A stretch of 64,000 nt of DNA from Minisyncoccota bacterium (GTDB lineage: Bacteria > Patescibacteriota > Microgenomatia > PFEM01 > JAFGMK01): assembly GCA_016927565.1 (NCBI GenBank), contig JAFGMK010000008.1, forward strand, positions 1,115 through 65,114, written 5' to 3'. A model generated the notes under the pieces. The model was not told the DNA's origin. It ran no database searches and worked only from the letters and a program-made list of their open reading frames with translations. The translations under genes were made by a program, and so were the position numbers. Numbering within the stretch: the first letter of the stretch is position 1; every line of letters begins with the position of its first letter. Shown here in pieces: positions 33,771-48,237 of the stretch.

Positions 33771-33805
33771 TTGACTATCTTTGATAAATAGTTTTGATTT
33801 ATTCA
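33771..33805. promoter_or_regulatory. -35-like TTGACT plus imperfect inverted repeat TGATAAAT-N7-ATTTATTCA (Fur/PerR-box-like) ahead of the ferritin-like gene
   Basis: Read from the sequence: 'TTGACTATCTTTGATAAATAGTTTTGATTTATTCA'. Confidence 0.3.
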
Positions 33806-33822
33806 GAAAGGAGGTGAAAAAA

Positions 33823-34374
33823 ATGGCTAAAGTAGCAATTGATGTTGTTAAAAAATCCGGCGTTGATGTTGGCAAATTGTTGAAACTGTTGATCAAAAAT
33901 GCTTCTGCTGAATTGACAACGTACTATTATTACACCATTCTCAGGGCTAATTTAATCGGTTTAGAGGGAGAAGGTGTAAAGGAAATTGCCGAAACAGCGA
34001 GGATTGAAGACCGCAATCATTTTGAGGCCCTAATGCCTCGTATTTATGAGTTGGGAGGCAGATTGCCGGCCGATATGAAAGAGTTTCATGATTTGTCAGC
34101 TTGTCCGCCGGCCAGTCTTCCCGAAAAACCGAACGATACTAAAGCTCTGCTTAAAGTGTTAGTTGAGGCGGAAAGATGTGCGGTTTATGGCTATACCCAA
34201 ATCTGCAATATGACCGCCGGTAAAGATCATCGGACATACGATTTGGTTTTGGCGATTCTAAACGAAGAAATTGAACACGAATCGTGGTTTTCTGAATTTC
34301 TGGGCGAGGGGCCTTCGGGTCATTTCCTCCGCCGGGGAGAAACATCACCCTTTGTTTCGAAATTTCTCAAGTGA
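33823..34374 (+). CDS. ferritin-like diiron protein (Dps/bacterioferritin-like superfamily)
   Basis: About 183 aa from ATG 33823 with RBS AGGAGGTG. Paired 'E..H' motifs ('EDRNHFE', 'EEIEHE') typical of ferritin-like four-helix bundles. Confidence 0.6.
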   Translation: MAKVAIDVVKKSGVDVGKLLKLLIKNASAELTTYYYYTILRANLIGLEGEGVKEIAETARIEDRNHFEALMPRIYELGGRLPADMKEFHDLSACPPASLPEKPNDTKALLKVLVEAERCAVYGYTQICNMTAGKDHRTYDLVLAILNEEIEHESWFSEFLGEGPSGHFLRRGETSPFVSKFLK

Positions 34375-34610: not shown

Positions 34611-35858
34611 GTGGGAAAAATGACAGAAGAGGCTTTTATTCAGGAGAACGGGCTTTCGGGTAGTTGTTCCGAAGTGTTAGAAAAACCGGAAGGGCAGATC
34701 GAGGTGAGGAATTTGGCTCGATTGGGTCTGGTTCGCTTGGCGGCAACTACTTCCGCAGGCCGATCGGTAATTCTGCCGGAGCAGGTTTTAGCGATTTATG
34801 ATCTTCGTCCTCATCTTTCCCGAGCCGGAATCGCGCTTCAGTCCGGGGTTTCGGAAACAACTATTGAAACAGTTGAGATTAAAGCTAGAGCTTCCTTAGC
34901 TTGGGCAACTGATCATCTTCAGGGAGGAAATAGGCGAAAAGAAGGTTTGGGAAACCGGGGAAAGCAGTACTACGATCGATTGGAAAAACTCCAGGCCATG
35001 ACAGAAAGAATGGAGAGGATTATTGCTGAACCTCGGGTGAGAAACCATCTGGTAAAAATGCCGGTCTCTCTGGAATTGGCGCAAGCCTATGCCAGAGATC
35101 ATACGGTTGGATTCTTTTTGGCAGAAGAGGGGTTTGCCTCCCCCAAACCTTTAGTTAATCAATATAATAGCTCCGTCAGACATCTTTTGGGGCTATCGGG
35201 AACAGGAGAGATTAGAAGAAAAATCAAAATTGGCGATTTGTCTCGGCGAATCCTTTTTTCCCGTTGGCTTAATCACCGTGGTGCCGATTGGAGAGATGCT
35301 TTAGTCAGCCGGGCGGCGGTTGCAGTTTTCACCGATCCAACGGCGGATTTAACCCACAATGGCCAGAGCACTTTATCGGATATGCGGATTTTCTTAGAGT
35401 CGATGATCAGACTGGAATACCGGCAGCTGGAAAGGGACCCGATTTTTAGATTCGCTGATGAGTTTCGAGAGCTGTTTCCTGCTGGTTTGGAAACAGGAGG
35501 AAAAAGCTTTGAGGGTATTTCTATCCCCGGCAGTTATGGGGCTTATGATGTTCTTTATGACTCCTGCCCGACAGCAATAAAAGGATTTGCCCGTTTATAT
35601 ATCCAAAAATCTGATTGGCAGGCTCTTTTGAATTATATGGATTCCGGTTACATTTACGCATTATCAACTAGAAAAAAGGTTATATCAGCCGGAGGGCGGT
35701 TTTTGGAAAACGCTTTGTCGGCCACAGGACCCGGTGGCCATCTCGGAGTTAAGACGCTGGTTTATAACCGCCGGCGAGATTTAAAAAGGGCAGCTTATTG
35801 GGCCCAAAAATTAGCTGATAAAGATAAAAACAGTCAGGCGCAGCAAGACCTATCATAG
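34611..35858 (+). CDS. hypothetical protein (GC-rich ORF)
   Basis: 415-aa ORF. No motif recognised. Confidence 0.4.
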   Translation: MGKMTEEAFIQENGLSGSCSEVLEKPEGQIEVRNLARLGLVRLAATTSAGRSVILPEQVLAIYDLRPHLSRAGIALQSGVSETTIETVEIKARASLAWATDHLQGGNRRKEGLGNRGKQYYDRLEKLQAMTERMERIIAEPRVRNHLVKMPVSLELAQAYARDHTVGFFLAEEGFASPKPLVNQYNSSVRHLLGLSGTGEIRRKIKIGDLSRRILFSRWLNHRGADWRDALVSRAAVAVFTDPTADLTHNGQSTLSDMRIFLESMIRLEYRQLERDPIFRFADEFRELFPAGLETGGKSFEGISIPGSYGAYDVLYDSCPTAIKGFARLYIQKSDWQALLNYMDSGYIYALSTRKKVISAGGRFLENALSATGPGGHLGVKTLVYNRRRDLKRAAYWAQKLADKDKNSQAQQDLS

Positions 35859-35969: not shown

Positions 35970-37574
35970 TTGTCAAAGGTGTTATTGTTGCCTTTTAAAT
36001 TGAATATCCTGAGATGGGATGGTGTTTTAGTCAAGATCTTGATGCTGGGGTTTCTACTGATATTTATTCTTTTCCCTTCTTCGTTTGTTTTAATTTTTCT
36101 TTTTAAACACAGCCGGGAAGTAGTTGGTTTTTTCTCTGAGTCGTCAAGAATTTTTTTAGTTACCGAGGCGCTGGTTTTTTCTTTAAAAATTGCCCTAACG
36201 GTGGCCTCAGTGGATCTTGTTTTTGGTTTGCCCTTTGCCTGGCTTTTGGCCAAAGAGCGTTTGCCGGCCAGCCGTTTACTGGAAAATATTACCAGCCTGC
36301 CCTTGGCTTTGCCGACCTCAGCGCTGGGTTTTTCCGCCGCTGTTTTTTGGACTTTTTCTAAAATTCCCCTTTCCGCTTTTTGGTTTTTGGTTTTGGTCCA
36401 TCTTTCTTTCACTTTTCCCTTTGTCGTTGGGATTTTGACCCCGGCGCTTAAAAGGGGAACCGGCAGTTTGGAACAGGCGGCAACGATTCTTGGCGCTCCC
36501 AAACTGACCGTTATCAGAACTATTGTCCTGCCCCAAATTAAGCTGGAATTGACAACCGCTGTTTTTTTCTCTTTTGCCCGCTCTTTAAGCGAAACCGGAG
36601 CTACCATTGTCGCTTTGACTGTCTTTGGTTTAAGCCAAGCAACTGCACCGGTATTAATTTCCCAGTTCAGTAATGGCGGGGAGGGTCAAATTTCTTATAA
36701 CGAGCGGTTGCTTTTGGCGGCTCTTATCAGTGGGGTTCTGATCTTAATCAGTCTGACATTGTTCTCGATCGTTCAATTGCTGGTGGGAAAAAGATCCTTG
36801 CCTGTTTTTTCTAAGTTAGTTAGTTTTGAGGCCGGAATGGATTCCGTTTTATTGAAAAGAGTAAAGAATTTTTTTCTTTTCGGATTTCTTGTTTTTATTA
36901 TTCTTATTCCGCCTTTTTTTATTTTGAATCAGGTTTTAAAAGTTCAAACTCTTAACATTCGACTGCTAATGACTTATCTTTTTAATTCACTTTTAATTGC
37001 TTTTTCAACCATTCTTATTAATTTGATAATTGGCACTCCCATGGCTTATTTTTTGGCTCATACCAACTCTCGAAAACTGAAGAGATTGATGAATTTTTTA
37101 GTTGATATTCCTTTGGTAGTGCCGACGGTTGCTCTGGGATTCTCTTTGGCCCTGTATTGGCGAGGCCAAACTTTGATTAGCTCCGATTTGCCGTTGGTTA
37201 TTTTGGCCCATTTGACCTTTACCTACCCGTATGCCGTGCGAACTCTTTGCGATGCTTTTACAGGTCTGAGTCAAGAATTTATTGATGCGGCGCGTAGTTT
37301 CGGAGCCTCGCCGATTATGGTCCTCCGCTCTGTTGTTTTGCCTCTTCTCTCGCCGTCGTTTGCCACGGCAGCGGTGTTGGTAGTTGCCAGATCGTTAGGA
37401 GAGACTGGTGCCACTATGGCAGTTTCTTCCGAAGTGATTACCGCTCCGGTTTACATCGTTGATTTAGTCAATGAATATCAAATTAGGCAAGCCGGGATTG
37501 CTTCGGCTTTGTTAATTACTCTTTCTTTTGGAGTTTTCGCCTTACTTAGAAGATCGGCCTTTGCCCGAAGGTAA
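35970..37574 (+). CDS. ABC importer permease, tandem two-domain type (FbpB/ThiP-like)
   Basis: 534 aa, about 12 TM. Two EAA-loop regions ('ARSLSETGATIVAL' and 'ARSLGETGATMAV'). Confidence 0.7.
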   Translation: MSKVLLLPFKLNILRWDGVLVKILMLGFLLIFILFPSSFVLIFLFKHSREVVGFFSESSRIFLVTEALVFSLKIALTVASVDLVFGLPFAWLLAKERLPASRLLENITSLPLALPTSALGFSAAVFWTFSKIPLSAFWFLVLVHLSFTFPFVVGILTPALKRGTGSLEQAATILGAPKLTVIRTIVLPQIKLELTTAVFFSFARSLSETGATIVALTVFGLSQATAPVLISQFSNGGEGQISYNERLLLAALISGVLILISLTLFSIVQLLVGKRSLPVFSKLVSFEAGMDSVLLKRVKNFFLFGFLVFIILIPPFFILNQVLKVQTLNIRLLMTYLFNSLLIAFSTILINLIIGTPMAYFLAHTNSRKLKRLMNFLVDIPLVVPTVALGFSLALYWRGQTLISSDLPLVILAHLTFTYPYAVRTLCDAFTGLSQEFIDAARSFGASPIMVLRSVVLPLLSPSFATAAVLVVARSLGETGATMAVSSEVITAPVYIVDLVNEYQIRQAGIASALLITLSFGVFALLRRSAFARR

Positions 37575-37576
37575 TC

Positions 37577-38686
37577 ATGGCCAGAATAGTTCTTGAAAAT
37601 ATTAAAAAGGTTTTTAACCAGACTATTGTTGCTCTTGACAACATCAGCCTGAGTATTGAAGATCGGGAATATGTTTCAATTCTCGGTACTAGCGGTTCGG
37701 GAAAGACGACTCTCTTACGAATTATTGCTGGTTTTGAGTCGCCGGAAACGGGAAAAGTTTTTTTTGACGGTCAGGACGTAAGCTTATTCCCCCCAGAGAA
37801 AAGAAATATTGGCTTTGTCTTCCAAGATTTTGCCCTTTTTCCTCATTTATCGGTTTGGGAAAATGTCGCTTATGGCCCGAAAATCAAAGGTCTGGGACGA
37901 GAACAGGTTAATGCTATTGGCCGTCAGACTCTTGAGATTGTTGGACTTTTTTCTCGTAAAGATAGTTTTCCCCACGAGCTTTCCGGAGGCATGAAACAGC
38001 GAGTTGGTTTAGCCAGAGCTATGGCATCGGGGTCTAAAATTTTACTCATGGATGAGCCCTTAGGATCGCTTGATGCCCGTATTAAGCGAACTTTAAAAAC
38101 GGAACTTAGAAACTGGGTTAAGGAGTTAGGCTTAACTGCGATCCATGTTGGTCACAGTCAGCTAGAAGCCATGGAGGTTTCTGATCGTCTCGTTATTATG
38201 GATAAGGGCCGTATTATCCAATCCGGCCCACCGGAAGAAATCTATAAAAACCCCAATAGTATTTTTGTTGCTGATTTCATTAGCGAGTCGAATTTTCTGA
38301 CTGGTACCATTGAGAATATCAAAAATCAGCATCTTACTATTGGCATCTGTCCGGACAGCCGGCTTCAAAGTTTACACAAAAACTTTAAACTCAAACAGAA
38401 AGTGGTTGTTTCTTTTCGTCCTGAGGAAGTCAAAATTCACCAAAGACTTCCGAATGATCCCTGCCTTAAAGGTTCTCTGATAAAAAAAAGATTTCTTCAG
38501 GGAAGGCTTTGCTTCACCGTGCGGCTGGTCAATCAGCAATCTATTACTGTCAGCCTGGCTCCTTCTTCTCATAATTCCGTTTGTAAAGAGGGAGAAGTGC
38601 TTTACATGACTGTTAGCCCAAGCCGAGTTCTGCTCTTTCCATATCCTAAGTCCGGATTAAAACAAGCATTGCGGACTTTTCTGTAG
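37577..38686 (+). CDS. ABC importer ATP-binding protein (FbpC/PotA-type with C-terminal TOBE-like domain)
   Basis: 369 aa. 'LGTSGSGKTTLL', 'LSGGMKQRVGLARAM', 'LLMDEPLGSLD'. Confidence 0.8.
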   Translation: MARIVLENIKKVFNQTIVALDNISLSIEDREYVSILGTSGSGKTTLLRIIAGFESPETGKVFFDGQDVSLFPPEKRNIGFVFQDFALFPHLSVWENVAYGPKIKGLGREQVNAIGRQTLEIVGLFSRKDSFPHELSGGMKQRVGLARAMASGSKILLMDEPLGSLDARIKRTLKTELRNWVKELGLTAIHVGHSQLEAMEVSDRLVIMDKGRIIQSGPPEEIYKNPNSIFVADFISESNFLTGTIENIKNQHLTIGICPDSRLQSLHKNFKLKQKVVVSFRPEEVKIHQRLPNDPCLKGSLIKKRFLQGRLCFTVRLVNQQSITVSLAPSSHNSVCKEGEVLYMTVSPSRVLLFPYPKSGLKQALRTFL

Positions 38687-38758
38687 GGTAATTCGAATCT
38701 CTTGTTTTACCGGGGATGGGGTCTTTAGCAAGGGGAAGAAAGGGAGTATCATATTTTT

Positions 38759-38992
38759 ATGAGCTGGTATATAGCCGCCGTTCTTCCGGTAGCCACCGGA
38801 TTATCTTGGCTTTTTTACTTTTATGCTTTTAAAGTCGGAGAGGCAAACAGAGCGGTGTCCAATAGATAAATTAAGTTTGATTTTAACAATAACAATTGCC
38901 GGAATTATTTTAAAGGAAAAAATCAATGCCCGGGTAGCTCTTGGATCATTACCGATGACTGTCGGTCCTTTAATTATCGCTTATGCAAAATA
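38759..38992 (+). pseudogene. EamA/DMT-transporter C-terminal fragment (remnant)
   Basis: Two short frames 'MSWYIAAVLPVATGLSWLFYFYAFKVGEANRAVS' and 'LILTITIAGIILKEKINARVALGSLPMTVGPLIIAYAK' resemble the last helices of EamA-domain proteins. No full gene. Confidence 0.3.
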
Positions 38993-39070
38993 AAACAAAA
39001 AAGGGCGAAATTTGAGATGTTTCTTATCCCGATCGTTTACCGAAGGCTATCCGAAAAAAGGAGGAATATC

Positions 39071-39114
39071 TATTAGCCATTTGACAAACGATGAAATTCG
39101 ATGGTATATATGAA
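39071..39114 (+). promoter_or_regulatory. sigma70-like promoter (TTGACA-18-TATATA) followed by a perfect 14-bp palindrome operator TGAATATATATTCA
   Basis: Read directly. The palindrome starts right after the -10 box, about 45 nt before the first NifX-like start. Confidence 0.45.
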
Positions 39115-39158
39115 TATATATTCAAAATGTTTACTATAAAGGAGGTAAAAAAGAAAAA

Positions 39159-39497
39159 ATGAAAATAGCCTTAAGTTCTCTGGGAAAAGACATTAATAGT
39201 GATCTTAGTAAAGTCTTCGGCAGGTGTCCCTGTTTTTTTATTATGGAAATTGAAGATAAAAAAGTGAAGGGATTTGAAGCCATTGAAAACACCAGTCAGA
39301 ATCAAATGGGAGGGGCGGGGATTTCTGCCGTCCGAACGATAGCCGGAAAAAATGTCGATGCGGTGATAGCTGGAGCTTTTGGCCCGAGGGCTCTAACAGT
39401 GTTAAAGCAGTTTAATATTGAAGCTTATACCGGCGCCGGTTCAATAAATGAAGTTAGTCAAAAATTTATCCAGGGAAAGCTCAAGAAGATCCAGTAA
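39159..39497 (+). CDS. NifX/NifB-C-terminal-like (dinitrogenase FeMo-cofactor-binding family, COG1433) protein
   Basis: 112 aa. 'KIALSS.G.....LS..FGRCP.F.I' N-terminal pattern characteristic of the family. Confidence 0.65.
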   Translation: MKIALSSLGKDINSDLSKVFGRCPCFFIMEIEDKKVKGFEAIENTSQNQMGGAGISAVRTIAGKNVDAVIAGAFGPRALTVLKQFNIEAYTGAGSINEVSQKFIQGKLKKIQ

Positions 39498-39501
39498 ATA
39501 A

Positions 39502-39867
39502 ATGATGCGAGTAGTAATTCCTACCAATGGCCGGAAAGGTTTAGCCGACAAAGTGGCGGAACATTTCGGCAGATGTGCCGCTTATACCTTTCTTGACGGA
39601 AAAGGCAGAGTTGTCGAAATAATAGATAACACCAGCGAACATCTAGGCGGTGAAGGTTTGCCGCCGGAGCTGATGAAAAAACACCAGGCAGATATTCTGT
39701 TATGTAAGGGATTGGGGTCTAGAGCACTAGATTTATGTCAAGAATTAGGCATAGATGTTTATGTCATCAAAGCAGAAACTGTCAGGGAAATATTTACAAT
39801 CTGGAAAAATAACAAAATAGAAAAGGCCGGGTTTAAAGATGTTTGCCAGGAAGACAAACCCGGATAA
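39502..39867 (+). CDS. NifX-like cofactor-binding protein (second paralog)
   Basis: 121 aa. 'MRVVIPTNG.....V..HFGRCAAYTF' follows the same family pattern. Confidence 0.65.
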   Translation: MMRVVIPTNGRKGLADKVAEHFGRCAAYTFLDGKGRVVEIIDNTSEHLGGEGLPPELMKKHQADILLCKGLGSRALDLCQELGIDVYVIKAETVREIFTIWKNNKIEKAGFKDVCQEDKPG

Positions 39868-39916
39868 AAAAAGCGATGTTGATTTTTACTGATTATAATT
39901 TTTTTCATATAAACCT

Positions 39917-40432
39917 ATGGCTTTAATTCCTTCCCTGGAAAAAAATCAAGTCGGAGAAATTGCCGAAGAGATTTATAAAAAATTTGAAAAAGAAGGCGGG
40001 AAAGTACCGCAGTGGGTAAAAGTAATGGCTCATAACCCAAAAATTTTGAAAGAATTTGTCGAGCTTTTTAAGGCAATCATGGGTGAGGGCAGGATAAAGC
40101 CATATTTAAAATGGAAAATGGCTTATGTTGTTTCCGAAACCCTGAAATGCCGTTTTTGTGTCAGTGTTACTATTATGATGTTAAAAACATTTGGCGCTGA
40201 CGACCGGGTAATTGGGAATATTAAAGAGATGAGAGGTTTGTCAGAAACAGAAAAAGAGATTTTGGAATTAGTAAAAGATGTGACAATAGACGGCCATCTG
40301 GATCAGCCAAAGATTTTTGAGAAATTAAAAGCCAAATTCAATTCTTCTCAAATTGTTGAGCTCGTTTCAGTTATTGGCCTCTTTAATTATATTAATCGTT
40401 TCAATAATACTCTGGTTATTCTGCCCGAATGA
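39917..40432 (+). CDS. carboxymuconolactone decarboxylase/AhpD-like family protein (tentative)
   Basis: 171 aa, all-helical. 'LKCRFCVSV' Cys pair in the position of AhpD-like active-site cysteines. Confidence 0.35.
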   Translation: MALIPSLEKNQVGEIAEEIYKKFEKEGGKVPQWVKVMAHNPKILKEFVELFKAIMGEGRIKPYLKWKMAYVVSETLKCRFCVSVTIMMLKTFGADDRVIGNIKEMRGLSETEKEILELVKDVTIDGHLDQPKIFEKLKAKFNSSQIVELVSVIGLFNYINRFNNTLVILPE

Positions 40433-40498
40433 AGATGATTTTAATCCCGACTGAATGAGACGGAGAATCAACGGGGGAAAGGCAGACGGTATTAAATT

Positions 40499-40699
40499 AT
40501 GCCAACCTATACTTTTCGCTGTCCGCAATGTAAAAAAGAGCTGACGGGCATTTTCCCGATGAAAGATTTTGACGGCAAGAAAGTGGTTTGCCCGGAATGC
40601 GGCCGGAAGGGCTTAAAACAAATTTTTAAAAGCCCGTTTTCAATTATTAATAAAAAGCCTGCCTGTCCAACGGGAAACTGTCCTTTGGTCCGAAAATAA
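40499..40699 (+). CDS. FmdB-type zinc-ribbon protein
   Basis: 66 aa. 'YTFRCPQC...CPECG' double CxxC and the typical N-terminus of FmdB-family regulators. Confidence 0.55.
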   Translation: MPTYTFRCPQCKKELTGIFPMKDFDGKKVVCPECGRKGLKQIFKSPFSIINKKPACPTGNCPLVRK

Positions 40700-40768
40700 A
40701 AATTAAAAAATTGCCTTTTAAGCCTTTCCCGATTTTATACGTTAAATAGTTATGATTTTGGATTTAAT

Positions 40769-41632
40769 ATGAAAATTGCTGTAACCGGCGGAAAAGGGGG
40801 GGTCGGAAAATCGATGGTCGCTACCTCTTTGGCGGTTGAATTTGCCAGAAATGATAAAACAATACTGATTGATGCGGATGCAGAATGCCCCAACGACCAT
40901 CTTTTGCTTTCGATAAAAAGAAAAAAATACACTTTCGTTTATCAGCCGATACCGAAATGGAACTTTAACAAATGCGTTAAGTGTGGCAAATGTGCCGCCG
41001 TTTGCAAACAAAACGCGATTGTTTTCGTGAAGAACAAGTATCCGGCTTTTGTGAAAGATATTTGCATTGGTTGCAAGGCCTGCATCGTTGCCTGTCCGGC
41101 CGGGGCGATAACGGCGACGAAGAAAGTAATTGGCACGATCTACACCGGAAGAAACTACGGGATTGATTTAGTTTCGGGAGAGCTTAAATTGGGAGAATTG
41201 GCATCAGGAGAGGTCGTGGCCGAGGTGAGAAAATATGCTGAGGAAATTAACCAGGCGGTAAAGGCAAAAATAACCATTATCGATTCTTCTCCCGGAATCG
41301 GTTGTCCGGTGATTGCTTCTTTGGTCGGGACTGATTATATTGTGGCCGTTACCGAGCCGACTCCTTCGGCTTTGCACGATTTAAAACGGGTTCTTTATTT
41401 AGCCGATCATTTTGGAATAGGCTGCGGAATTGTTATTAATAAGTTTGACCTGGCTAAAAATTTTTACAAAAAAATAGAAAAATTTGCGGAGGAAAGTAAA
41501 ATTGCCGTTATCGGAAAGATTCCTTATCGGAAAGATTTTGTTGAGGCCGCTATTAAAATGAGGCCGGCGTTGGAGATGAATCCCGAACACCGGGGAGTTT
41601 TCAGAAAAATTATTAAAGAAATGAAATCTTAA
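40769..41632 (+). CDS. MinD/ParA-superfamily P-loop ATPase with inserted double 4Fe-4S ferredoxin domain (COG1149-like)
   Basis: 287 aa. 'KIAVTGGKGGVGKS' deviant Walker A. 'CVKCGKCAAVC' and 'CIGCKACIVACP' ferredoxin motifs. Confidence 0.7.
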   Translation: MKIAVTGGKGGVGKSMVATSLAVEFARNDKTILIDADAECPNDHLLLSIKRKKYTFVYQPIPKWNFNKCVKCGKCAAVCKQNAIVFVKNKYPAFVKDICIGCKACIVACPAGAITATKKVIGTIYTGRNYGIDLVSGELKLGELASGEVVAEVRKYAEEINQAVKAKITIIDSSPGIGCPVIASLVGTDYIVAVTEPTPSALHDLKRVLYLADHFGIGCGIVINKFDLAKNFYKKIEKFAEESKIAVIGKIPYRKDFVEAAIKMRPALEMNPEHRGVFRKIIKEMKS

Positions 41633-41638
41633 ACTATT

Positions 41639-42688
41639 ATGAAAGAGAGAATAGCCGCAATTTCAATTGCGGCCAATGTTGTTTTAGCCGGAGGCAAGCT
41701 GGTGGTCGGATCAATTGCCGGTTCCGGCGCTGTTTTTGCCGAAGGTTTGCATTCGGGGATGGATATCTTATCTTCTGCAATCAGTTTTTTTGGCATCAAA
41801 ATTGCTAAAAAACCCGTCGATGAAAAACACCCCTACGGCCATTATAAATTTGAAGTTCTGGCCGGATTGATAATCACGGCAATTTTGTTTTTAACTGGTT
41901 TGTTTATCGCCATTGAAGCAATTCGTGAATTTAGTGATCCTTCTCCGGCGAATATCGGTTGCCTGGCTTTAGGAGTGATGCTGGTCTCAGCGGCGGTCAA
42001 TGAGGCAATGGCCAGATTAAAAATCCACTATGGCAAAAAGGAGAATTCAGTTTCTTTGCTTTCTGACGGAGTGCATTCCAGAGTTGATGTTTATGCTTCA
42101 TTGGCGGTTTTTGCAGGTTTGTTTTTGACCAAGTATTGGTTTTATATTGATTCATTTATGGCTCTGGCAGTCGGCTTTTTTATTATTAAAGAATCTTTTT
42201 CTTTAGGCAAAGAGGCGATTGATTCTTTGCTTGATGTTTCTGCTGGCGACGAGATGGAAAAAAAGATAAAAGCGATTGCCCAGAGTCAGAACATTGAAAT
42301 AGACTCTTTAAAAACCCAGAAAAAAGGTTCAACGGCAACCGCTAATTTAGAAATAAAACTTTCGAGCAGTCTGAGTGTGGAGGAGGCGGCCAGGCTTTCT
42401 GATAGTCTGAGGGAGAAGCTGATAGAAAAAATTGAGAATCTTTCCTATGTGGCTGTTCAAATCAAAAGCCACCAAGTGGAGACGGGGTTTTACAAGCCTG
42501 CTTTCGGTAAGGGTTTCGGTTGGCAAAGACGAGGCAGGTTTAAAGCGAATATCCGGAAAGCAGAAGGCCGGGGACCGGGCGGTGATTGTGTTTGTTTGAA
42601 GTGTGGTTATAAAATTCCTCATCAGAGGGGCACGCCCTGCTCGGCTTTTCAATGCCCGAACTGTAAAATCGATTTAGAAAGAAGATAG
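41639..42688 (+). CDS. cation diffusion facilitator (CDF) transporter with C-terminal zinc-ribbon extension
   Basis: 349 aa, 6 TM. 'HSGMD' and 'HPYGHYKFE' CDF motifs. C-terminal 'CVCLKCGYKIPHQRGTPCSAFQCPNCK'. Confidence 0.7.
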   Translation: MKERIAAISIAANVVLAGGKLVVGSIAGSGAVFAEGLHSGMDILSSAISFFGIKIAKKPVDEKHPYGHYKFEVLAGLIITAILFLTGLFIAIEAIREFSDPSPANIGCLALGVMLVSAAVNEAMARLKIHYGKKENSVSLLSDGVHSRVDVYASLAVFAGLFLTKYWFYIDSFMALAVGFFIIKESFSLGKEAIDSLLDVSAGDEMEKKIKAIAQSQNIEIDSLKTQKKGSTATANLEIKLSSSLSVEEAARLSDSLREKLIEKIENLSYVAVQIKSHQVETGFYKPAFGKGFGWQRRGRFKANIRKAEGRGPGGDCVCLKCGYKIPHQRGTPCSAFQCPNCKIDLERR

Positions 42689-42716
42689 CCCGGAGATAAA
42701 TTCGCAGTAAATTAAA

Positions 42717-43004
42717 ATGCCCAGACCGAAAATACCCCGCCGTATCCGGTTTAATCCGGATGTCTATTATTTTAAGCCTCAGGGAATTCCTTTGAGGGAA
42801 CTTGAGGAGGTGGTTTTGCTGCCGGATGAGTTGGAGGCTTTGAAATTACACGAGATCGATAGCTTAGAACAAATTGAAGCTTCAAAGGGAATGCAAGTTT
42901 CCCAGCCGACTTTTGCCAGAATCTTGAATAATGCTTATAAAAAAATCGCTCAAGCTCTAATCGAGGGCAAGGCCATCAGAATAGAAGAAAGAAGGTCAAA
43001 GTGA
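42717..43004 (+). CDS. DUF134/UPF0251-family putative DNA-binding protein
   Basis: 95 aa. 'PRPKIPRRI...P.V.YFKP.G' N-terminus and sigma-region-4-like HTH 'QPTFARILNNAYKKIAQAL'. Confidence 0.6.
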   Translation: MPRPKIPRRIRFNPDVYYFKPQGIPLRELEEVVLLPDELEALKLHEIDSLEQIEASKGMQVSQPTFARILNNAYKKIAQALIEGKAIRIEERRSK

Positions 43005-43237
43005 AGACTGTTTCTTTGGTAAAACTGAATGAGAAGGAAAAGGCAGAAGTTGTCTCTATTCTTGGCGGTCAAATGGCCACTAAAAGATTGGTTGATTTAG
43101 GCTTAACCGCGGGAACCAGGGTAAAAATTTTAAAAAAAGCGCCTCTTTTTGGTCCGGTGGAAATTGAGCTCAGGGGTTCAGCTTTAGTCTTGGGCCAGGG
43201 ATTGGCGGCAAAGATTCTGGTGAGAAGAGGCGAATGA
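43001..43237 (+). CDS. feoA: ferrous iron transport protein A
   Basis: 78 aa, small SH3-like. 'G..LGL..G..V.........P.......' FeoA pattern. Overlaps the feoB start. Confidence 0.65.
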   Translation: MKTVSLVKLNEKEKAEVVSILGGQMATKRLVDLGLTAGTRVKILKKAPLFGPVEIELRGSALVLGQGLAAKILVRRGE

Positions 43238-45165
43238 AAGAAAACAAAGAATTAAATATTGTTTTGGCCGGCAATGCCAATGTGGGTAAATCAGTTATCT
43301 TCAATCATCTCACCGGTCTTCATCAGCATATTGGCAATTGGCCCGGAAAAACGATCGAAAAGGCCGAGGGCACTTTGCATTACCGGGGATATACGATTAA
43401 TGTTCTGGACTTGCCGGGAATTTATTCTTTATCAACATATTCAACTGAAGAGATAATTGCCCGCGACTACATTGCTTCTCAGAAGCCTGATTTTATTATC
43501 AATGTCGTTGATGCGACTCATCTGGAGAGAAATTTAATTTTTACTTGGCAGCTTCTGGAATTGAAAAAACCGATGGTGCTCGCTCTTAATATGGTTAATT
43601 TGTTAAAAGAAAAAGGGATAGAGATTGACATCAAGAAACTGGAAAAAGCCCTGAAGATTCCTGTTGTCCCGACGGCTGCCATTTACGGAAAAGGAATAAC
43701 CGAGATTTTGAACCAGGGGATTAGGTCAATTAAAAGAAAAAGAGCAACTACCGATCCCATAAAATACGGGAAAGAGATGGAAGAAAAGATTGGCTGGTTG
43801 ACCGAAAGGATGGCGGAGATTAGCTCGGTTTATCCTAAAAGATGGTTAGCAATAAAACTTCTGGAAAAAGATAAAATCATCGAAAAATTATTTGAAAAGA
43901 AAAATTCGGAGATTTTGGAGCAAGCCAAAATTTTCCGTTCGGAACTTAAAAAGGTTCACGGACATGATCCGTCAATAATGATTGCTGACGAGAGATGCCA
44001 TTTGGTTTCTCAGGTAGTAAAAGAGGCGGTGCGGGTGACAGAGCCGCAGGCGACTGGACTTAATGAACGGCTGGACAACATAACTTGTCATAAAATTCTA
44101 GGTTTTCCGACCATGATTTTTATCTTGGGTCTGGTTTTTCTGAGCGTTTTTCAATTTGGCAACCGGCTTTCTTATCTGCTTGAAAAGCTTTCTTTTGGCT
44201 GGGAGAAATGGTACGAAGGAATGTTTGGGGTTTCTCTCTGGACTTATCTAGGTTGGTCGGTGGCAGAAAGCGCTTTTGCTTTAATTCAGATTGCCCTGCC
44301 TTATATTTTTCCTTTCTACTTCCTCTTATTTTTTTTAGAAGATTGGGGTTACTTAGCTCGGGTTGCTTTTTTGATGGATAATTTCATGCATAAAGTCGGC
44401 GTTCACGGCAAAGCTTGTATTCCTTTGATGCTCGGGTTTGGTTGTAATGTTCCGGCTTGTCTTGCCTGCCGGATTATGGAAACCCGGAGGGAAAGATTTA
44501 TCACTGGAGTTTTGACTACTTTTATTCCTTGTTCGGCTGTGAGCGTCATCATTATCGGGTTAGTCGGTAAATTTATCGGTTTAAGTTGGGCGTTAGGATT
44601 GTATGGGATAGCTTTTTTAACAATTTTTGTTTTAGGAAAATTGGTTTCTAAAATTTTACCCGGAGAGGCCACTGAACTGATTATGGAAATGCCGGACTAC
44701 AAAATTCCTCACTTTAGGACTGTGATCTTGCAGACCTGGTTTAGGTTAAAAGAATTTATTGTTATTGCCGGTCCTGTGGTAATAATTTCCGGAATAGTTA
44801 TCAGGATGATTCGCTTTACGGACTGGCTGACGGCCGTTGCTGATTGGTTAAGTCCGATTACCGTGAACTGGTTAGGGCTGCCGGCAATTACCGGAGTTTT
44901 ACTTATTTTTGGGATTTTAAGAAAAGAGCTGATTTTGGTGATGTTGGCTGCTTTATTGGGGACCGCTGATTTCTCCCAAATTTTATCCCCCAGACAGATG
45001 GTTACTTTAGCGCTGGTTAGCATGTTTTACTTTCCTTGTCTGGCCACTTTTGCTGCTTTCAGGAAGGAATTCGGTTTAAAAGAGGCGATTGGGGTGGCTT
45101 CTTTTAAGATCATTTTTGCTATAATATACGGCGGTTTGTTTTATCGGTTGGGATTATTATTTTAA
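43234..45165 (+). CDS. feoB: ferrous iron transport protein B
   Basis: 643 aa. N-terminal G-domain 'LAGNANVGKS' and large C-terminal polytopic membrane domain with gate motifs. Confidence 0.8.
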   Translation: MKENKELNIVLAGNANVGKSVIFNHLTGLHQHIGNWPGKTIEKAEGTLHYRGYTINVLDLPGIYSLSTYSTEEIIARDYIASQKPDFIINVVDATHLERNLIFTWQLLELKKPMVLALNMVNLLKEKGIEIDIKKLEKALKIPVVPTAAIYGKGITEILNQGIRSIKRKRATTDPIKYGKEMEEKIGWLTERMAEISSVYPKRWLAIKLLEKDKIIEKLFEKKNSEILEQAKIFRSELKKVHGHDPSIMIADERCHLVSQVVKEAVRVTEPQATGLNERLDNITCHKILGFPTMIFILGLVFLSVFQFGNRLSYLLEKLSFGWEKWYEGMFGVSLWTYLGWSVAESAFALIQIALPYIFPFYFLLFFLEDWGYLARVAFLMDNFMHKVGVHGKACIPLMLGFGCNVPACLACRIMETRRERFITGVLTTFIPCSAVSVIIIGLVGKFIGLSWALGLYGIAFLTIFVLGKLVSKILPGEATELIMEMPDYKIPHFRTVILQTWFRLKEFIVIAGPVVIISGIVIRMIRFTDWLTAVADWLSPITVNWLGLPAITGVLLIFGILRKELILVMLAALLGTADFSQILSPRQMVTLALVSMFYFPCLATFAAFRKEFGLKEAIGVASFKIIFAIIYGGLFYRLGLLF

Positions 45166-45186
45166 GTTTCAAAATTAAAGAAGAGT

Positions 45187-46305
45187 GTGAAAAAGGCATT
45201 TTACCTGATCTTATTGTTGTCGGTGACTTTTTTTTCTTTGAATGTTTTCGCTTTTGCCCAGACAGAAACAGCCGATGAACTGTCCCGAGAAGAAACATTT
45301 GAAGCAAGCATAGAGAAAATACTGGAGGAAAAACAAATAAAGTTGCCGGGCTCGGAAGGTTTTCAGCTTTATCAGAAATTGGAGCTTCTGGTTACCAGAG
45401 GTTCATTTAAAGGCCAAAAAATCACGGTCGAAAACGGGGATTTGCCGATGGCCAATCTTGTTAAATACAAAATCGGCGATCGGGTTATGGTCAGTTCCAG
45501 CCGGGATTTTGAAGGCCGCCGCATTTTTTATATTACCGACTTTATCAGACGAAACGTCCTGCTCTGGTTGTTTCTGGTTTTTGTGATCATGGCAGTGGTA
45601 ATTGGCCGGTGGCAGGGGGTGACTTCTCTGGCGGGAATGGCGATTTCTTTTTTGATTATCTTCAAGTTCATTCTGCCTAGAATTTATGCCGGAAGCGATC
45701 CGGTTTTGATTGCTGTTTTGGGTTCGCTGGTGATAATTCCGGCTACTTTTCTTTTATCTCACGGGATAAATAGGAAAACCGGGATTGCCGTTACGGGAAC
45801 GATTATCTCTCTGGTCATTACCGGTGTTTTGGCCGGTTTTTTTGTTAATGCTTCCCGCTTGACCGGCTTTGCCTCCGAGGAAGCTGGTTTTCTTCAAGCT
45901 TACAAACCGGGAGTAATTAACATTAAGGGTCTTCTTTTGGCAGGAATTATTATCGGTGTTTTGGGTGTTTTGGACGATATCACTATTTCCCAATCAGCCA
46001 TTGTTCAGCAGTTGAATATCGCCAATCCGAAACTTAAGCCGGGAGAGCTTTATCAAAGAGCTATGAAGGTTGGTCGGGATCATATTGCCTCAATGGTTAA
46101 TACTTTGATCTTAGTTTATACCGGAGCGGCTTTGCCCCTGCTGCTTCTTTTCCTTGACAGTTCTCACTCCTTTTCAGAAGTAGTTAATTATGAAATAATT
46201 GCTGACGAGGTGGTCAGGACTTTAGTTGGCAGTATCGGTCTGGTTCTGGCTGTTCCGATAACGACCTTAATCGCTGTTTTTGCATTTAATCAAAAAAGGA
46301 GGTGA
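45187..46305 (+). CDS. YibE/F-like membrane protein (tentative)
   Basis: 372 aa. Signal peptide, about 110-aa extracytoplasmic domain, then about 7 TM. Confidence 0.45.
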   Translation: MKKAFYLILLLSVTFFSLNVFAFAQTETADELSREETFEASIEKILEEKQIKLPGSEGFQLYQKLELLVTRGSFKGQKITVENGDLPMANLVKYKIGDRVMVSSSRDFEGRRIFYITDFIRRNVLLWLFLVFVIMAVVIGRWQGVTSLAGMAISFLIIFKFILPRIYAGSDPVLIAVLGSLVIIPATFLLSHGINRKTGIAVTGTIISLVITGVLAGFFVNASRLTGFASEEAGFLQAYKPGVINIKGLLLAGIIIGVLGVLDDITISQSAIVQQLNIANPKLKPGELYQRAMKVGRDHIASMVNTLILVYTGAALPLLLLFLDSSHSFSEVVNYEIIADEVVRTLVGSIGLVLAVPITTLIAVFAFNQKRR

Positions 46306-46583
46306 ATTCGGTGAAGGTTTTAAAGATAGGAGCTGTTTGGTGCAATGGGTGTTTGGTGATGCGGCCTCGCTGGCAGGAGATAGAAAAGGAAAATCCCTGG
46401 TTAAAAACAGAATATTATGATTTTGATCAGGATAAAACAGTCATAAAAAAATACAGGATAGAAGGCGGAAAATTACCCGTTTTTATTTTTTTGGACAGGA
46501 GGGAAAAAGAAATGTTCAGACTTGAGGGGGAAATCGAGAAAAAGGAATTATTAAAAATAATTAGCGAAAATAAAGGTGAATAA
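46302..46583 (+). CDS. small thioredoxin-like protein
   Basis: 93 aa. 'WCNGC' CxxC redox motif in a thioredoxin-like context. Confidence 0.5.
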   Translation: MNSVKVLKIGAVWCNGCLVMRPRWQEIEKENPWLKTEYYDFDQDKTVIKKYRIEGGKLPVFIFLDRREKEMFRLEGEIEKKELLKIISENKGE

Positions 46584-46586
46584 GCA

Positions 46587-47771
46587 ATGCTGAAGAAATT
46601 GTTGGCGTCACTTGGAGGGCTGTTTTTTTTCCTCTTTTTAGCTTTACCGATACGGGCAGAAAACGGGAAAGTCAATCTTTATTTTTTCTGGGCTTACGGG
46701 TGCCCTCATTGCGCCAATGAGAAAACTTTTCTTGAATCATTGGGAAAAAAATATCCTCAACTGACAATTAATGATTATGAGGTGACCGGAAACAAAAAAA
46801 ACCTTGAGCTCCTGAAAAAGATCGGCCAAGAATTATCCGTTAATGTTTCCGGAGTTCCGTTCACGGTTATCGGCAAACAGGATTTTGCCGGTTATTACAA
46901 TGACGAAACGACGGGAAAGAAAATCGAAGAAGCGGTTGAGTGTGCCGTGAGAAACGGTTGCGAAGATTTGGTAGTTGATCTTACCACCGCAGGAGATCAA
47001 CAACCAGAGCAAAAAACTGTTCTAAAATCGGTTCGGCTGCCGATTATCGGAGAGCTGGAAATCAAAAATCTTTCACTGCCGGTTCTGACATTTGTTCTGG
47101 CTTTACTGGATGGTTTCAATCCCTGCGCGATGTGGATACTCCTTTTTTTGATTAGTTTGCTTTTGGGAATGAAAGATCGGAAAAGAATGTGGATTTTGGG
47201 AACTGCTTTTATTGTTGCTTCGGCTTTGGCCTACTTTCTATTTTTAACGGCCTGGCTAAACCTGTTTTTGTTCCTGGGTTATGTTTTTTATGTAAGACTG
47301 GGAATCGGATTACTGGCCTTAGCCGCCGGAGGATATTACTTAAGAGATTACCAGGTTAATAAAAAAGGTGGCTGCAAGGTTATGGGAGATAAAAAAAGAC
47401 AAAGGGTTTTTGAAAAACTCAGGAACATCGCTCAAAAAAAGCAATTTCTGACTGCTCTGGGAGGAATGATTCTTCTGGCTTTTGCCGTTAATTTAATCGA
47501 ATTGATCTGTTCTGCCGGTTTGCCCACAATCTATACCAAAGTTTTGAGCTTGGCCAAATTGCCGGCCTGGCGATATTACTTATATCTTGTTTTTTATATC
47601 ATAATTTTTATGCTGGATGATTTATTTGTTTTTTTTACGGCAATGACTACGCTTCGGGCGGTTGGAGTCCAAAGCAAATATTCGCGCTTTTCTCATCTTA
47701 TTGGCGGAATTTTAATGCTGATCATCGGCGCGCTTCTGCTTTTTAAACCCGAATGGTTAATGTTCGGATAA
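46587..47771 (+). CDS. thiol:disulfide interchange protein: thioredoxin-like domain fused to CcdA/DsbD-type membrane domain
   Basis: 394 aa. 'YGCPHC' CxxC in the N-terminal domain. 'LDGFNPCAMW' DsbD/CcdA transmembrane cysteine motif. Confidence 0.6.
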   Translation: MLKKLLASLGGLFFFLFLALPIRAENGKVNLYFFWAYGCPHCANEKTFLESLGKKYPQLTINDYEVTGNKKNLELLKKIGQELSVNVSGVPFTVIGKQDFAGYYNDETTGKKIEEAVECAVRNGCEDLVVDLTTAGDQQPEQKTVLKSVRLPIIGELEIKNLSLPVLTFVLALLDGFNPCAMWILLFLISLLLGMKDRKRMWILGTAFIVASALAYFLFLTAWLNLFLFLGYVFYVRLGIGLLALAAGGYYLRDYQVNKKGGCKVMGDKKRQRVFEKLRNIAQKKQFLTALGGMILLAFAVNLIELICSAGLPTIYTKVLSLAKLPAWRYYLYLVFYIIIFMLDDLFVFFTAMTTLRAVGVQSKYSRFSHLIGGILMLIIGALLLFKPEWLMFG

Positions 47772-47772
47772 A

Positions 47773-48237
47773 ATGAGAATGACCGAAGACATAAATTACC
47801 AGCTTCTTCCGCCGGCTTATTTTCAAATTTGCCTTTTATTTGAGATAGTTTTGCATTTTCTTTTTCCGGTTGTCAGGATTATCGGTAAGTCTTTAAATTA
47901 TTTTGGATTTTTATTAATTCTCCTCGGTCTCGGTTTAAACATTTGGACGGACATTTTATTTAAGAAAAGAAAAACGACTGTCAAACCCTTTGAAAAACCT
48001 TCTGTTTTAATTACTCATGGGCCTTTTTTTATCAGCCGTCATCCGATGTATTTGGGTTTTGTTTTGATCCTCTTGGGATTGGCGATAGTTTTAGGCAGTT
48101 TAATTTCTTTCATCGGGCCGGTTGCGATGTTTTTTATTTTGGCAAAATTATTCATCTCCAAGGAAGAAAAGTCTTTGGAAAAAATCTTTGGAAAGCAATA
48201 TCGGGAATATAAAAGCCGAGTCAGGCGCTGGTTTTAG
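47773..48237 (+). CDS. isoprenylcysteine carboxyl methyltransferase (ICMT/PEMT)-family membrane protein
   Basis: 154 aa. 'ITHGPFFISRHPMYLG' motif. Confidence 0.6.
   Translation: MRMTEDINYQLLPPAYFQICLLFEIVLHFLFPVVRIIGKSLNYFGFLLILLGLGLNIWTDILFKKRKTTVKPFEKPSVLITHGPFFISRHPMYLGFVLILLGLAIVLGSLISFIGPVAMFFILAKLFISKEEKSLEKIFGKQYREYKSRVRRWF

Follow-up and report, generated by a model that had tools for sequence, protein, structure and literature searches.

Why would a bacterium keep a CDF metal exporter, the ferrous iron importer FeoAB, two NifX-like proteins and a MinD-type ATPase with ferredoxin motifs behind one promoter? Which metal is being handled, and in which direction does it move? And which protein reads the palindrome at the start of the operon? 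These questions are raised by positions 39,071 to 45,165 of a 64,000-nucleotide (nt) stretch, called here the window, of contig JAFGMK010000008.1 from a Minisyncoccota bacterium. An initial annotation, made from the sequence alone, had read the locus as a system for trafficking or storing iron or iron-sulfur (Fe-S) clusters; this is still the best-supported reading, and the cluster turns out to be a conserved functional unit. In the form that we favour, and to which we give about an even chance, the operon is a single membrane-coupled metal-sulfide handling module, most likely for iron-sulfur, related to IssA and ORP and carrying its own repressor, DUF134. The metal handled and the direction of flow given below are what we infer.

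How is the locus built? Nine open reading frames (ORFs), all on the + strand and every coordinate verified, form one co-directional string from 39159 to 45165, as first annotated. The gaps between the first seven genes measure, in order, 4, 49, 66, 69, 6 and 28 nt, so that none exceeds 69 nt, where about 110 nt had initially been given. The last two junctions are 4-nt overlaps, one at DUF134/feoA and the one already noted at feoA/feoB. The promoter elements and genes are:

39081–39086, + strand: −35 hexamer TTGACA, read from the sequence by eye; TTGACA also stands before the palindrome in the related loci L001, L002, L008, L011 and L084
39102–39110, + strand: extended −10 element TGgTATATA, 18 nt downstream of the −35 hexamer, read from the sequence
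39111–39124: palindrome TGAATATATATTCA (TGAATAT.ATATTCA), perfect, 14 bp, directly abutting the −10 element and covering roughly the transcription start; proposed DUF134 operator
39140–39145, + strand: ribosome-binding site AGGAGG, 13 nt ahead of the first gene's ATG
39159–39497, + strand: NifX1, 112 aa, pI 9.4; PF02579/IPR003731 (Nitro_FeMo-Co) 70.8 bits, E 1.2e-19 (cutoff 26.3)
39502–39867, + strand: NifX2, 121 aa, pI 6.8, HFGRC motif, four Cys; PF02579 53.5 bits, E 3.1e-14
39917–40432, + strand: AhpD/CMD-like, peroxidase-related protein with a CRFC motif; sub-threshold PF02627 17.3 bits (cutoff 23) and TIGR01926 58 bits (cutoff 81.8)
40499–40699, + strand: FmdB-type zinc ribbon, 66 aa, six Cys; PF09723 Zn_ribbon_8 43 bits (cutoff 34.4), TIGR02605 46.6 bits (cutoff 31.3)
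40769–41632, + strand: MinD/ParA-type ATPase with an inserted 2x[4Fe-4S] ferredoxin domain; Pfam CbiA, ParA and Fer4
41639–42688, + strand: CDF transporter; PF01545 Cation_efflux 164 bits, PF16916 ZT_dimer 29.8 bits, TIGR01297 226 bits (cutoff 82)
42494–42688, + strand: C-terminal tail of the CDF, pI 10.1; Gly/Arg/aromatic cationic linker (GFGWQRRGRF...GRGPGG), then a six-Cys/His ribbon
42717–43004, + strand: DUF134 (PF02001) helix-turn-helix protein, 95 aa, no Cys; 74.3 bits (cutoff 27); proposed operon repressor
43001–43237, + strand: FeoA; PF04023 66 bits, E 2e-18; start overlaps the end of the DUF134 gene
43234–45165, + strand: FeoB; TIGR00437 497 bits (cutoff 316); start and stop codons overlap with feoA

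Domain searches agree with most of the names given at the outset: both NifX-like proteins, the FmdB-like zinc ribbon, DUF134 and FeoAB lie above cutoff, and the MinD/ParA ATPase with its two 4Fe-4S motifs is recognised through its CbiA, ParA and Fer4 matches. FeoB has the G-domain and the Gate/FeoB_C membrane domain expected of it, with FeoA adjacent. The AhpD-like label holds for the CRFC motif, but the CMD and TIGR01926 scores stay below threshold. For the CDF-zinc-ribbon fusion, Pfam supports the CDF and the tail is indeed Cys-rich, with six Cys, but that tail lies outside all Pfam models. The promoter is of sigma-70 type; it was identified by eye and by its conservation in relatives, a consensus scan having missed its hexamer, which ends in A. 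Rfam returned no RNA family in the whole window, so a riboswitch or RNA leader does not offer an explanation for the control of the operon.

Is this gene set more than a local assembly? Eighty loci drawn from one-genome-per-species contigs, and the neighbourhoods of close homologues, were mapped with jackhmmer profiles seeded with the window proteins, and families were counted in the 33 non-redundant loci that hold at least three core families. The loci were gathered by two peptide patterns of this MinD-ferredoxin subfamily, and the frequencies apply to that subfamily, not to all COG1149 clusters. NifX-like proteins occur in 31 of the 33 loci, the CDF in 29, DUF134 in 25 and DUF5320 in 19; a free small ribbon protein (8/33), the AhpD-like protein (6/33), the FmdB ribbon (3/33) and FeoB (2/33) follow. 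The core of NifX1, NifX2, MinD-ferredoxin ATPase, CDF and DUF134 is conserved in genomes that diverge widely, and DUF5320 and the six-Cys ribbon usually accompany it. Conservation of gene order, on which the initial annotation had staked its reading, is found in the form of two recurring architectures. A close group (MinD-ferredoxin 69–83% identity) has the order (DUF5320)-NifX1-NifX2-(AhpD-like)-MinD-Fd-CDF(349 aa, ribbon tail)-(DUF134), where Fd stands for ferredoxin, and a distant group (32–42%) has DUF5320-[free 57–75 aa ribbon]-NifX1(tailed)-CDF::NifX(409–462 aa)-(NifX2)-MinD-Fd-[variable]-MinD-Fd-DUF134. Two more loci, reached independently by way of the fusion protein, have the distant-group architecture according to precomputed Pfam calls. 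Fusions between the parts recur, in the combinations CDF-NifX, CDF-ribbon, NifX-ribbon, DUF134-NifX, DUF134-ribbon and DUF134-DUF5320.

This survey changes the first picture of the locus in two respects. The NifX-like proteins, the ATPase and DUF134 had been described as a trio embedded between the CDF and FeoAB, but the CDF is itself a core member (29/33, fused to the NifX-like domain or the ribbon). FeoAB, the other flank named there, is lineage-specific (2/33 loci), and its linkage is for this reason weak evidence alone; apart from the window, L002 and L003 are the only loci with Feo behind DUF134. The AhpD-like protein, whose homologues lie inside the six loci counted above and in L085, is an accessory member. 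Thioredoxin, AhpC, a family-4-type uracil-DNA glycosylase (UDG), radical SAM, ZIP, ABC-3 and CobW genes are found inside some related clusters. An additional fixed partner gene was considered and rejected, the flanking families outside the core being heterogeneous.

What holds the parts together? In the related loci the CDF is nearly always fused, either to a six-Cys ribbon, as in the window, or to a NifX-like domain. The latter architecture (Cation_efflux+ZT_dimer+PF02579) is Pfam-confirmed, and a database search with one such fusion returned a family of at least 508 proteins at E<=1e-20, the best 120 of which all have three domains; their source names are merely 'CDF family transporter' or 'hypothetical'. 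The six-Cys ribbon is found as well as a free protein of 57–75 aa (8 loci), fused to NifX1 (L019) and fused to DUF134. The pattern is reciprocal: when the ribbon is on the CDF the NifX-like protein is free, and when NifX is on the CDF the ribbon is free. This reciprocity argues that the cytoplasmic end of the CDF, the NifX domain and the ribbon may act as one complex. The ribbon itself reads CxCxxC-x5-H-x5-C-x4-CxxC, and F293, W295, C317, C319, H328, C334 and C339 are invariant among 12 aligned homologues. The nearest equivalogs of the transporter are all sub-threshold, namely MamM/MamB at 145 bits (cutoff 350), MntE at 128, FieF at 126 (cutoff 420) and ZitB at 59; it falls far below the MamB/MamM and FieF cutoffs and is thus a member of neither. 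At site A the window protein has HxxxD/HxxxD, where some close relatives have DxxxD/HxxxD.

A separate observation concerns the start of the CDF gene. A perfect 8-bp stem, GCCGCAAT-TTCA-ATTGCGGC, occupies 41654–41673, within CDF codons 6–12 and 22 nt past the MinD-ferredoxin stop codon. A terminator scan called it on both strands, and on the + strand it has no proper T-run; it could be an internal attenuator, an RNase site or a chance feature.

NifX1 and NifX2 occur as a pair in all close relatives. The closest solved relative of NifX1 is MTH1175 (1eo1, E 4.5e-21), with ORP (2wfb) at E 8e-5; for NifX2 the closest are PH0822 (2yx6) and TM1290/TM1816, with ORP 2wfb at E 3e-4. Neither protein matches the NifX, NafY or NifB models of NCBIfam, whose one return for them is a partial match to NF041136 (MrpORP), (35–59 bits, cutoff 450). 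The NifX1-type orthologues of at least 12 related clusters carry a Pro-rich and then a Gly/Arg cationic tail, e.g. '...TAPTAPGHFGRGFGRGFGRGFGRKRGF' (L014, L015, L018, L020, L026, L028, L030, L031, L034, L037, L038 and L041), and in L019 NifX1, a Gly/Arg segment and the ribbon are fused. The N-terminal halves of the DUF5320 proteins are rich in Trp, Gly and Arg, have a single Cys and lead into a coiled coil.

The ATPase has the deviant Walker A motif GGKGGVGKS, two CxxCxxCxxxC motifs and a faint Fer4_NifH match in Pfam. It is 77–83% identical to many metagenomic homologues, and invariant Cys stand in its ECPND and GIGCP segments in the homologue alignment. Its C-terminal end (GVFRKIIKEMKS) looks, to the eye, basic and amphipathic. 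In clusters of the distant type a gene of the UDG superfamily repeatedly lies directly before the second MinD-ferredoxin gene (L015 9384–9977, L026, L034, L041, L044, L084 11883–12482 and L085 14040–14636). Family-4 UDGs carry a [4Fe-4S] cluster, and because of this the glycosylase may be a client protein of the system.

Which protein, then, reads the palindrome? The perfect palindrome announced as an operator at the lead promoter is confirmed as 14 bp at 39111–39124, and TGAATATATATTCA has this single exact occurrence in the window. Looking for it elsewhere, as had been advised, was rewarding. Exact copies stand before DUF5320 (L013), before a DUF134::NifX fusion (L022, labelled Methanosarcinales) and before a free ribbon gene (L043); one-mismatch copies are found in L001, L002 and L012; TGGGTATATACTCA is present in L008, L015, L026 and L034, and L007 has two copies of TGAATACCTATTCA. 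Defining the motif as TGnnTATATAnnCA with at most one mismatch and nn self-complementary (form TGnnTAT.ATAnnCA), 13 sites fall within 200 nt upstream of cluster genes (15.6 kb in total), against 0.48 +/- 0.71 expected and a maximum of 4 in 500 composition-matched resamples; compared with the rate elsewhere in the loci the enrichment has a binomial P of ~9e-16. L084, which was not used in defining the motif, has TTGACA-16 nt-TGGGTATATACTCA ahead of DUF5320. The centre of the palindrome is the −10 hexamer itself in L001, L008, L011 and L084, and in the window the palindrome begins right after the −10; both placements are repressor geometries.

DUF134 is the sole DNA-binding fold conserved in the cluster. 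Its AlphaFold2 model (pLDDT 90.8) is a three-helix helix-turn-helix that superposes at 0.6–0.9 A over ~47 residues on the DNA-bound region 4 (−35) of an ECF sigma factor and on the operator-bound DeoR domain; no solved structure was found for the family. Comparison across the loci shows that the operator bases vary together with the DUF134 recognition helix, in a few operator classes. The helix SQ(P/S)TFxRIL of the window and its close relatives goes with operator arms TGAATAT or TGGGTAT, SRGTVWRL (L018, L019, L031, L038) goes with the operators TGTGCATATACACA, GCACATAAT.ATTATGTGC and TTGTGATATTGCACAA (arms of TGTGCAT type), and SRKTLWRE (L014) goes with a perfect TGCGCAT.ATGCGCA. On the strength of this co-variation and of the conservation of the operator, the palindrome is probably the DUF134 site, and DUF134 is the best of the two regulators that had been put forward. 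The other, the FmdB-like ribbon, is better seen as its co-worker: of 150 representatives of the DUF134 family, ~25 have a similar CxxC..CxxC ribbon fused on, so the FmdB-type ribbon is probably a partner of DUF134. These counts come from an exhaustive HMMER search that gave 2862 DUF134 cluster representatives, the C-terminal features being counted in the best 150. Besides the ~25 with the CxxC..CxxC ribbon, 41 are bare, 25 end in a Gly/Arg-rich tail, 13 in a PF02579 domain, 11 in DUF5320, 5 in the six-Cys ribbon and 33 in other extensions; the PF02579 and DUF5320 fusions, and ribbon fusions too, are Pfam-confirmed. This suggests that the NifX, ribbon and DUF5320 modules may be sensor or partner domains of DUF134. 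The window protein is a clear member (74 bits vs 27) of the DUF134/UPF0251/COG1342 'predicted DNA-binding proteins', for which no functional study, operator or ligand was found in the searchable literature; new here are the family of operators, its geometry in the promoter and its co-variation with the helix.

Some further features of the promoter region can be recorded. As additional operator copies in the window, for instance at the ferritin or ABC genes, there are two degenerate matches alone (starts 1473 and 62954), which were taken as chance. The promoter spacer (39087–39104) holds a short direct repeat, CGATG-aaatt-CGATG, and L002 has the equivalent CAAT(A)-aaact-CAAT(G) in the same place. 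In L001 (5763–6725) and L012 (8126–9289) a membrane-anchored protein of 320–387 aa, without a meaningful Pfam match and lacking from the window, is encoded between the operator promoter and NifX1.

Has anything comparable been characterised? The recurrence of the trio in anaerobes, which the initial annotation pointed out, is borne out, but its statement that no function is assigned goes too far, as ORP (PMC6345978, PMC8359166) and IssA (PMC5524996) have been characterised. IssA (SipA, PF2025) of Pyrococcus furiosus serves thioferrate iron-sulfur storage; it consists of an IPR003731 domain followed by a Pro-rich and then a Gly/Arg/aromatic cationic tail, proposed to wrap the anionic thioferrate, and the same work assigned MTH1175 to the IssA clade of IPR003731 proteins and left 'IssX' as an uncharacterised clade (Vaccaro et al. 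2017, PMC5524996). In Thermococcales feoAB is induced by sulfur together with SipA/IssA, another NifX-like protein and two 'CobQ/4Fe-4S' ATPases (PMC6981617, PMC4463584), and in Methanococcus voltae two IssA-clade proteins are up on pyrite (PMC9431491). The window cluster shares with IssA a PF02579 globular domain outside a nitrogenase context, with NifX1 nearest to the IssA-clade MTH1175 by closest solved structure. The NifX1 orthologues in related clusters carry the Pro-rich and Gly/Arg(/aromatic) tail, the DUF5320 N-terminal halves are similar, with a single Cys, and the company is alike, since in Thermococcales the expression of IssA goes with that of FeoAB and of MinD-ferredoxin ATPases (PMC6981617). 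Unlike IssA, NifX1 and NifX2 of the window are tail-less, and the cationic segment is on the CDF C-terminus, or on DUF5320 in relatives. The CDF, the six-Cys ribbon and DUF134 are integral to the window cluster, whereas none is described for IssA, and thioferrate nanoparticles are known from IssA.

The Desulfovibrio ORP complex joins MinD-ferredoxin ATPases with PF02579 proteins, to which MrpORP hands Fe-S clusters (PMC6345978), and its operons respond to redox potential (PMC8359166). The likeness to the window lies in the MinD-type ATPase with two [4Fe-4S] ferredoxin motifs (Orp3/Orp4), in the single-domain PF02579 proteins and in Fe-S-binding components that are specific to anaerobes. An amphipathic C-terminal helix has been reported for Orp3/Orp4; the end of the window ATPase is basic-amphipathic by eye only. 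The differences are as clear: the window cluster has no Mrp/NBP35-Di-Nase fusion, the similarity to ORP (Orp8) is weak (E 8e-5), and the CDF, ribbon, DUF5320 and DUF134 are outside the described ORP complex. Control also differs, with sigma-54, OrpR and IHF there and a sigma-70-like promoter with a putative DUF134 operator in the window; no enhancer-binding protein is encoded among the cluster genes or their immediate neighbours, and no search aimed at −24/−12 elements was made.

The third comparison is with MamB/MamM and FieF/YiiP, which share the Cation_efflux + ZT_dimer architecture and give the best sub-threshold scores of the window CDF. The analogy that we propose is with MamB/M, in which Fe2+ transport is tied to the formation of iron minerals inside the cell. 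The window CDF lies far below the cutoffs of these families (350–420 bits), has the Gly/Arg linker and six-Cys ribbon (a NifX-like domain in relatives) and is found in no magnetosome context. Taken together, the component families are known, and IssA and ORP are clear characterised relatives; without precedent in the literature found are the obligatory fused CDF, the six-Cys ribbon module, DUF5320 as a module like the IssA tail and the DUF134 operator code. The literature searched held no functional study of DUF5320, of COG1149/COG1433 or of a CDF with NifX.

How might such a module work? A DUF134 dimer would bind the palindrome at 39111–39124 and block RNA polymerase, making the operon autoregulated. 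Its occupancy would be set by metal- or cluster-loaded partners, either the NifX-like proteins, the FmdB ribbon or the ribbon tail of the CDF; a signal through partner proteins seems reasonable because the window DUF134 has no Cys and such partners are fused to DUF134 in other lineages. The NifX-like proteins would scaffold or carry anionic Fe-S species, which the Gly/Arg/aromatic cationic segments (on the CDF tail in the window, on DUF5320 and NifX1 in relatives) could stabilise electrostatically, as proposed for the IssA tail. The MinD-ferredoxin dimer would provide ATP-gated, electron-coupled assembly or release at the membrane, and the MamB/M- and FieF-like CDF would export cytoplasmic Fe2+, either as overflow or for delivery to a store. 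FeoAB, added in the window lineage, would be co-expressed for uptake and supply iron when sulfide sequesters it, which mirrors the joint sulfur induction of SipA/IssA, MinD-ferredoxin proteins and feoAB in Thermococcales. The points counted for iron and Fe-S are FeoAB in the operon, the ferritin upstream, a rubrerythrin-like gene in L009 and L010, a CDF nearer to MamM/MamB, MntE and FieF than to ZitB/DmeF, the nearness of NifX1 to MTH1175, the IssA-like cationic segments of NifX1 orthologues and DUF5320, and the sulfur response in Thermococcales. A bolder version, possible but in our view rather doubtful, is an undescribed machine widespread in anaerobes, in which the CDF is coupled, by fusion or by way of a six-Cys ribbon, to IssA-like NifX proteins, DUF5320 cationic tails and the MinD-ferredoxin ATPase and builds, holds and releases a membrane iron-sulfide store, with DUF134 as a cluster-sensing repressor with an operator code.

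How well do other explanations fare with the same facts? Several points weigh against a module for iron-sulfur. This exact cluster is known from genes alone; both window NifX-like proteins stop at the end of the globular domain, and IssA is defined by its cationic tail; it is odd for one operon to encode both export and import of a single metal; the frequency of the CDF holds for the sampled MinD-ferredoxin subfamily, not for every COG1149 cluster; site A of the CDF is the HxxxD/HxxxD usual in Zn-type CDFs; and ZIP, ABC-3 and CobW-type genes recur in or beside some related clusters, with many Zn-ribbon modules, which makes zinc or another thiophilic metal possible. The last two points, and the abundance of zinc-ribbon modules in the cluster itself, are what one would expect of a system for buffering and efflux of zinc or a similar thiophilic divalent metal, in which the ribbons and NifX-like proteins bind Zn, Cd or Co, possibly as sulfides, the HD-HD CDF exports the metal and DUF134 is a metal-responsive repressor. 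We consider this unlikely, given that the second transmembrane helix of relatives has the FieF-like DxxxD, that the best equivalog similarity is to MamM/MamB, MntE and FieF and not to ZitB or DmeF, and that the obligatory partner is an ATPase with two [4Fe-4S] motifs. Every characterised PF02579 protein, moreover, binds an Fe-containing sulfide cluster, and the links in the window are to Feo and ferritin, not to Znu or Zur. Could the cluster instead be a strict Desulfovibrio-type ORP complex, its NifX-like proteins carrying a non-covalent Mo(W)-Cu-S cluster, its MinD-like ATPases acting in division or polar localisation and its CDF serving Cu, Zn or another partner metal? That complex has as its hallmark MinD-ferredoxin ATPases together with single-domain PF02579 proteins (PMC6345978), NifX1 and NifX2 of the window show weak similarity to ORP 2wfb (E 8e-5 and 3e-4), and the thioredoxin, AhpC and AhpD-like genes, neighbours related to redox, bring to mind the orp operons, which are under redox control (PMC8359166). 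It is nevertheless an improbable answer: NifX1 is far nearer to MTH1175 (E 4.5e-21), the cluster has no MrpORP fusion, sigma-54 enhancer-binding protein or molybdate- or tungstate-related gene behind its sigma-70-like promoter, and nothing in the ORP system as described corresponds to the Gly/Arg cationic tails or to the MamB/FieF-like CDF. Very improbable, finally, are ordinary nitrogenase-cofactor accessories (NifX/NafY/NifB-C with a NifH-like ATPase) beside unrelated transporter genes. Membership of both proteins in PF02579 and the faint Fer4_NifH match of the ATPase would fit, but no NifX, NafY or NifB model of NCBIfam is reached, no nif-like neighbour is present in the window cluster or among the commonest neighbour families of the 33 loci, and the transporter is fused to the NifX-like domain in hundreds of proteins. 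The cluster is also common in metagenome-assembled genomes (MAGs) labelled Candidate Phyla Radiation (CPR)/Patescibacteria and DPANN, small genomes that are not known to encode nitrogenase.

The assignment of the palindrome has its own competitor, in which it is a site for a regulator encoded elsewhere (Fur, PerR, Zur or DtxR-like) or plain promoter sequence, and DUF134 is an anti-sigma-like or nucleic-acid-binding adaptor with RGG-like tails. The AT-rich 7-7 palindrome is similar in composition to Fur-family boxes, and its TATATA core doubles as the −10 box and may partly mirror promoter composition (bacterial −10 box, archaeal TATA box). Some site-bearing loci (L008, L011 and L012) have no DUF134 gene within the DNA retrieved, Gly/Arg-rich tails are typical of RNA-binding proteins too, and the pairing of DUF134 with the palindrome comes from co-occurrence and from co-variation across a few operator classes. 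Against this competitor, the site tracks the cluster across bacterial- and archaeal-labelled lineages, its specificity bases change with the helix of the one conserved DNA-binding protein, and no Fur- or DtxR-type gene was seen among the genes examined around the operon. A small probability is what we leave to it, and the DUF134 repressor remains the preferred reading.

Why does it matter? Little is understood of iron and sulfide storage and trafficking in strict anaerobes. Ferritin chemistry depends on oxidants, and no Fe-S store besides IssA has been described. The cluster joins, with a transporter and in one regulated unit, four families with no or partial function: DUF134/PF02001, DUF5320, the COG1149 ATPases and a ribbon without a Pfam model. 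It spans many uncultivated lineages, among them gene-poor genomes labelled CPR and DPANN. A specific CDF-NifX-ribbon complex is predicted from the reciprocal fusions, and the operator with its helix co-variation makes the regulator directly testable. If the bolder reading is true, it would give first functions for DUF134, DUF5320 and COG1149 and tell how minimal-genome anaerobes bank iron and sulfur.

The taxonomic spread of the cluster comes with a difficulty. The exact MinD-ferredoxin protein of the window is on record under the label Candidatus Pacebacteria, and homologues with 77–83% identity carry conflicting, MAG-based labels: Parcubacteria, Shapirobacteria, Saccharibacteria, Humimicrobiaceae (Actinomycetota in NCBI) and DPANN-type archaea. 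The CDF-NifX fusions are labelled Wolfebacteria, Portnoybacteria, Patescibacteria and Firmicutes. We take the source to be an uncultivated anaerobe, probably of the CPR/Patescibacteria. Five archaeal-labelled loci, L004, L005, L006, L007 and L043 (Iainarchaeum, Nanoarchaeota, 'archaeon', Micrarchaeota), have the same operon with a MinD-ferredoxin ATPase 72–75% identical to that of the window, and the palindrome of L043 is identical to the window's. Either these MAG labels are wrong, or cluster and operator were recently transferred between CPR-type bacteria and DPANN-type archaea. In two other loci, L009 and L010, a rubrerythrin-like gene, named from its N-terminal sequence by eye, follows the CDF. 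Where the window has feoAB, L001 (10252–14655) has genes for a serine recombinase, the large subunit of a terminase and a ParB/methyltransferase; apparently a prophage or integrative element has entered directly behind DUF134.

What surrounds the operon in the window? The co-directional run extends past 45165 to 48237, with gaps of at most 21 nt, and these genes are probably co-transcribed with the operon:

45187–46305, + strand: YibE/F (Pfam/NCBIfam)
46302–46583, + strand: thioredoxin-like protein, 93 aa; 4-nt overlap with the end of YibE/F
46587–47771, + strand: 394-aa membrane protein with a weak glutaredoxin-like N-terminus and several predicted membrane helices, without a Pfam family
47773–48237, + strand: PEMT/ICMT-like protein (Pfam/NCBIfam)

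The 93-aa thioredoxin-like protein and the 394-aa protein could form a thiol-disulfide relay like DsbD/CcdA. In L002, YibE/F and the PEMT-like gene are likewise downstream of FeoB, and the thioredoxin-like/394-aa pair is missing between them. On the upstream side, the ferritin-like gene and ABC importer that had been placed just before the operon are both found:

33781–34374: ferritin (PF00210)
35970–38686: ABC permease and ATPase

Between the ferritin and the two-domain ABC permease genes lies a 415-aa ORF without a Pfam match (34611–35858). Directly upstream of the promoter, at 38738–38993, two short ORFs in different frames, MSWYIAAVLPVATGLSWLFYFYAFKVGEANRAVSNR and then ...IDKLSLILTITIAGIILKEKINARVALGSLPMTVGPLIIAYAK, resemble a disrupted C-terminal region of a small membrane transporter of the EamA/DMT type and are possibly a pseudogene remnant. 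Farther upstream, on the − strand at 27977–33579, two very large adjoining proteins are encoded. The one of 984 aa combines PQQ-like beta-propeller repeats with a dockerin type I domain at its C-terminus, and the one of 888 aa has a weak DUF5060 match alone; dockerin-bearing surface proteins are unexpected for a small-genome organism.

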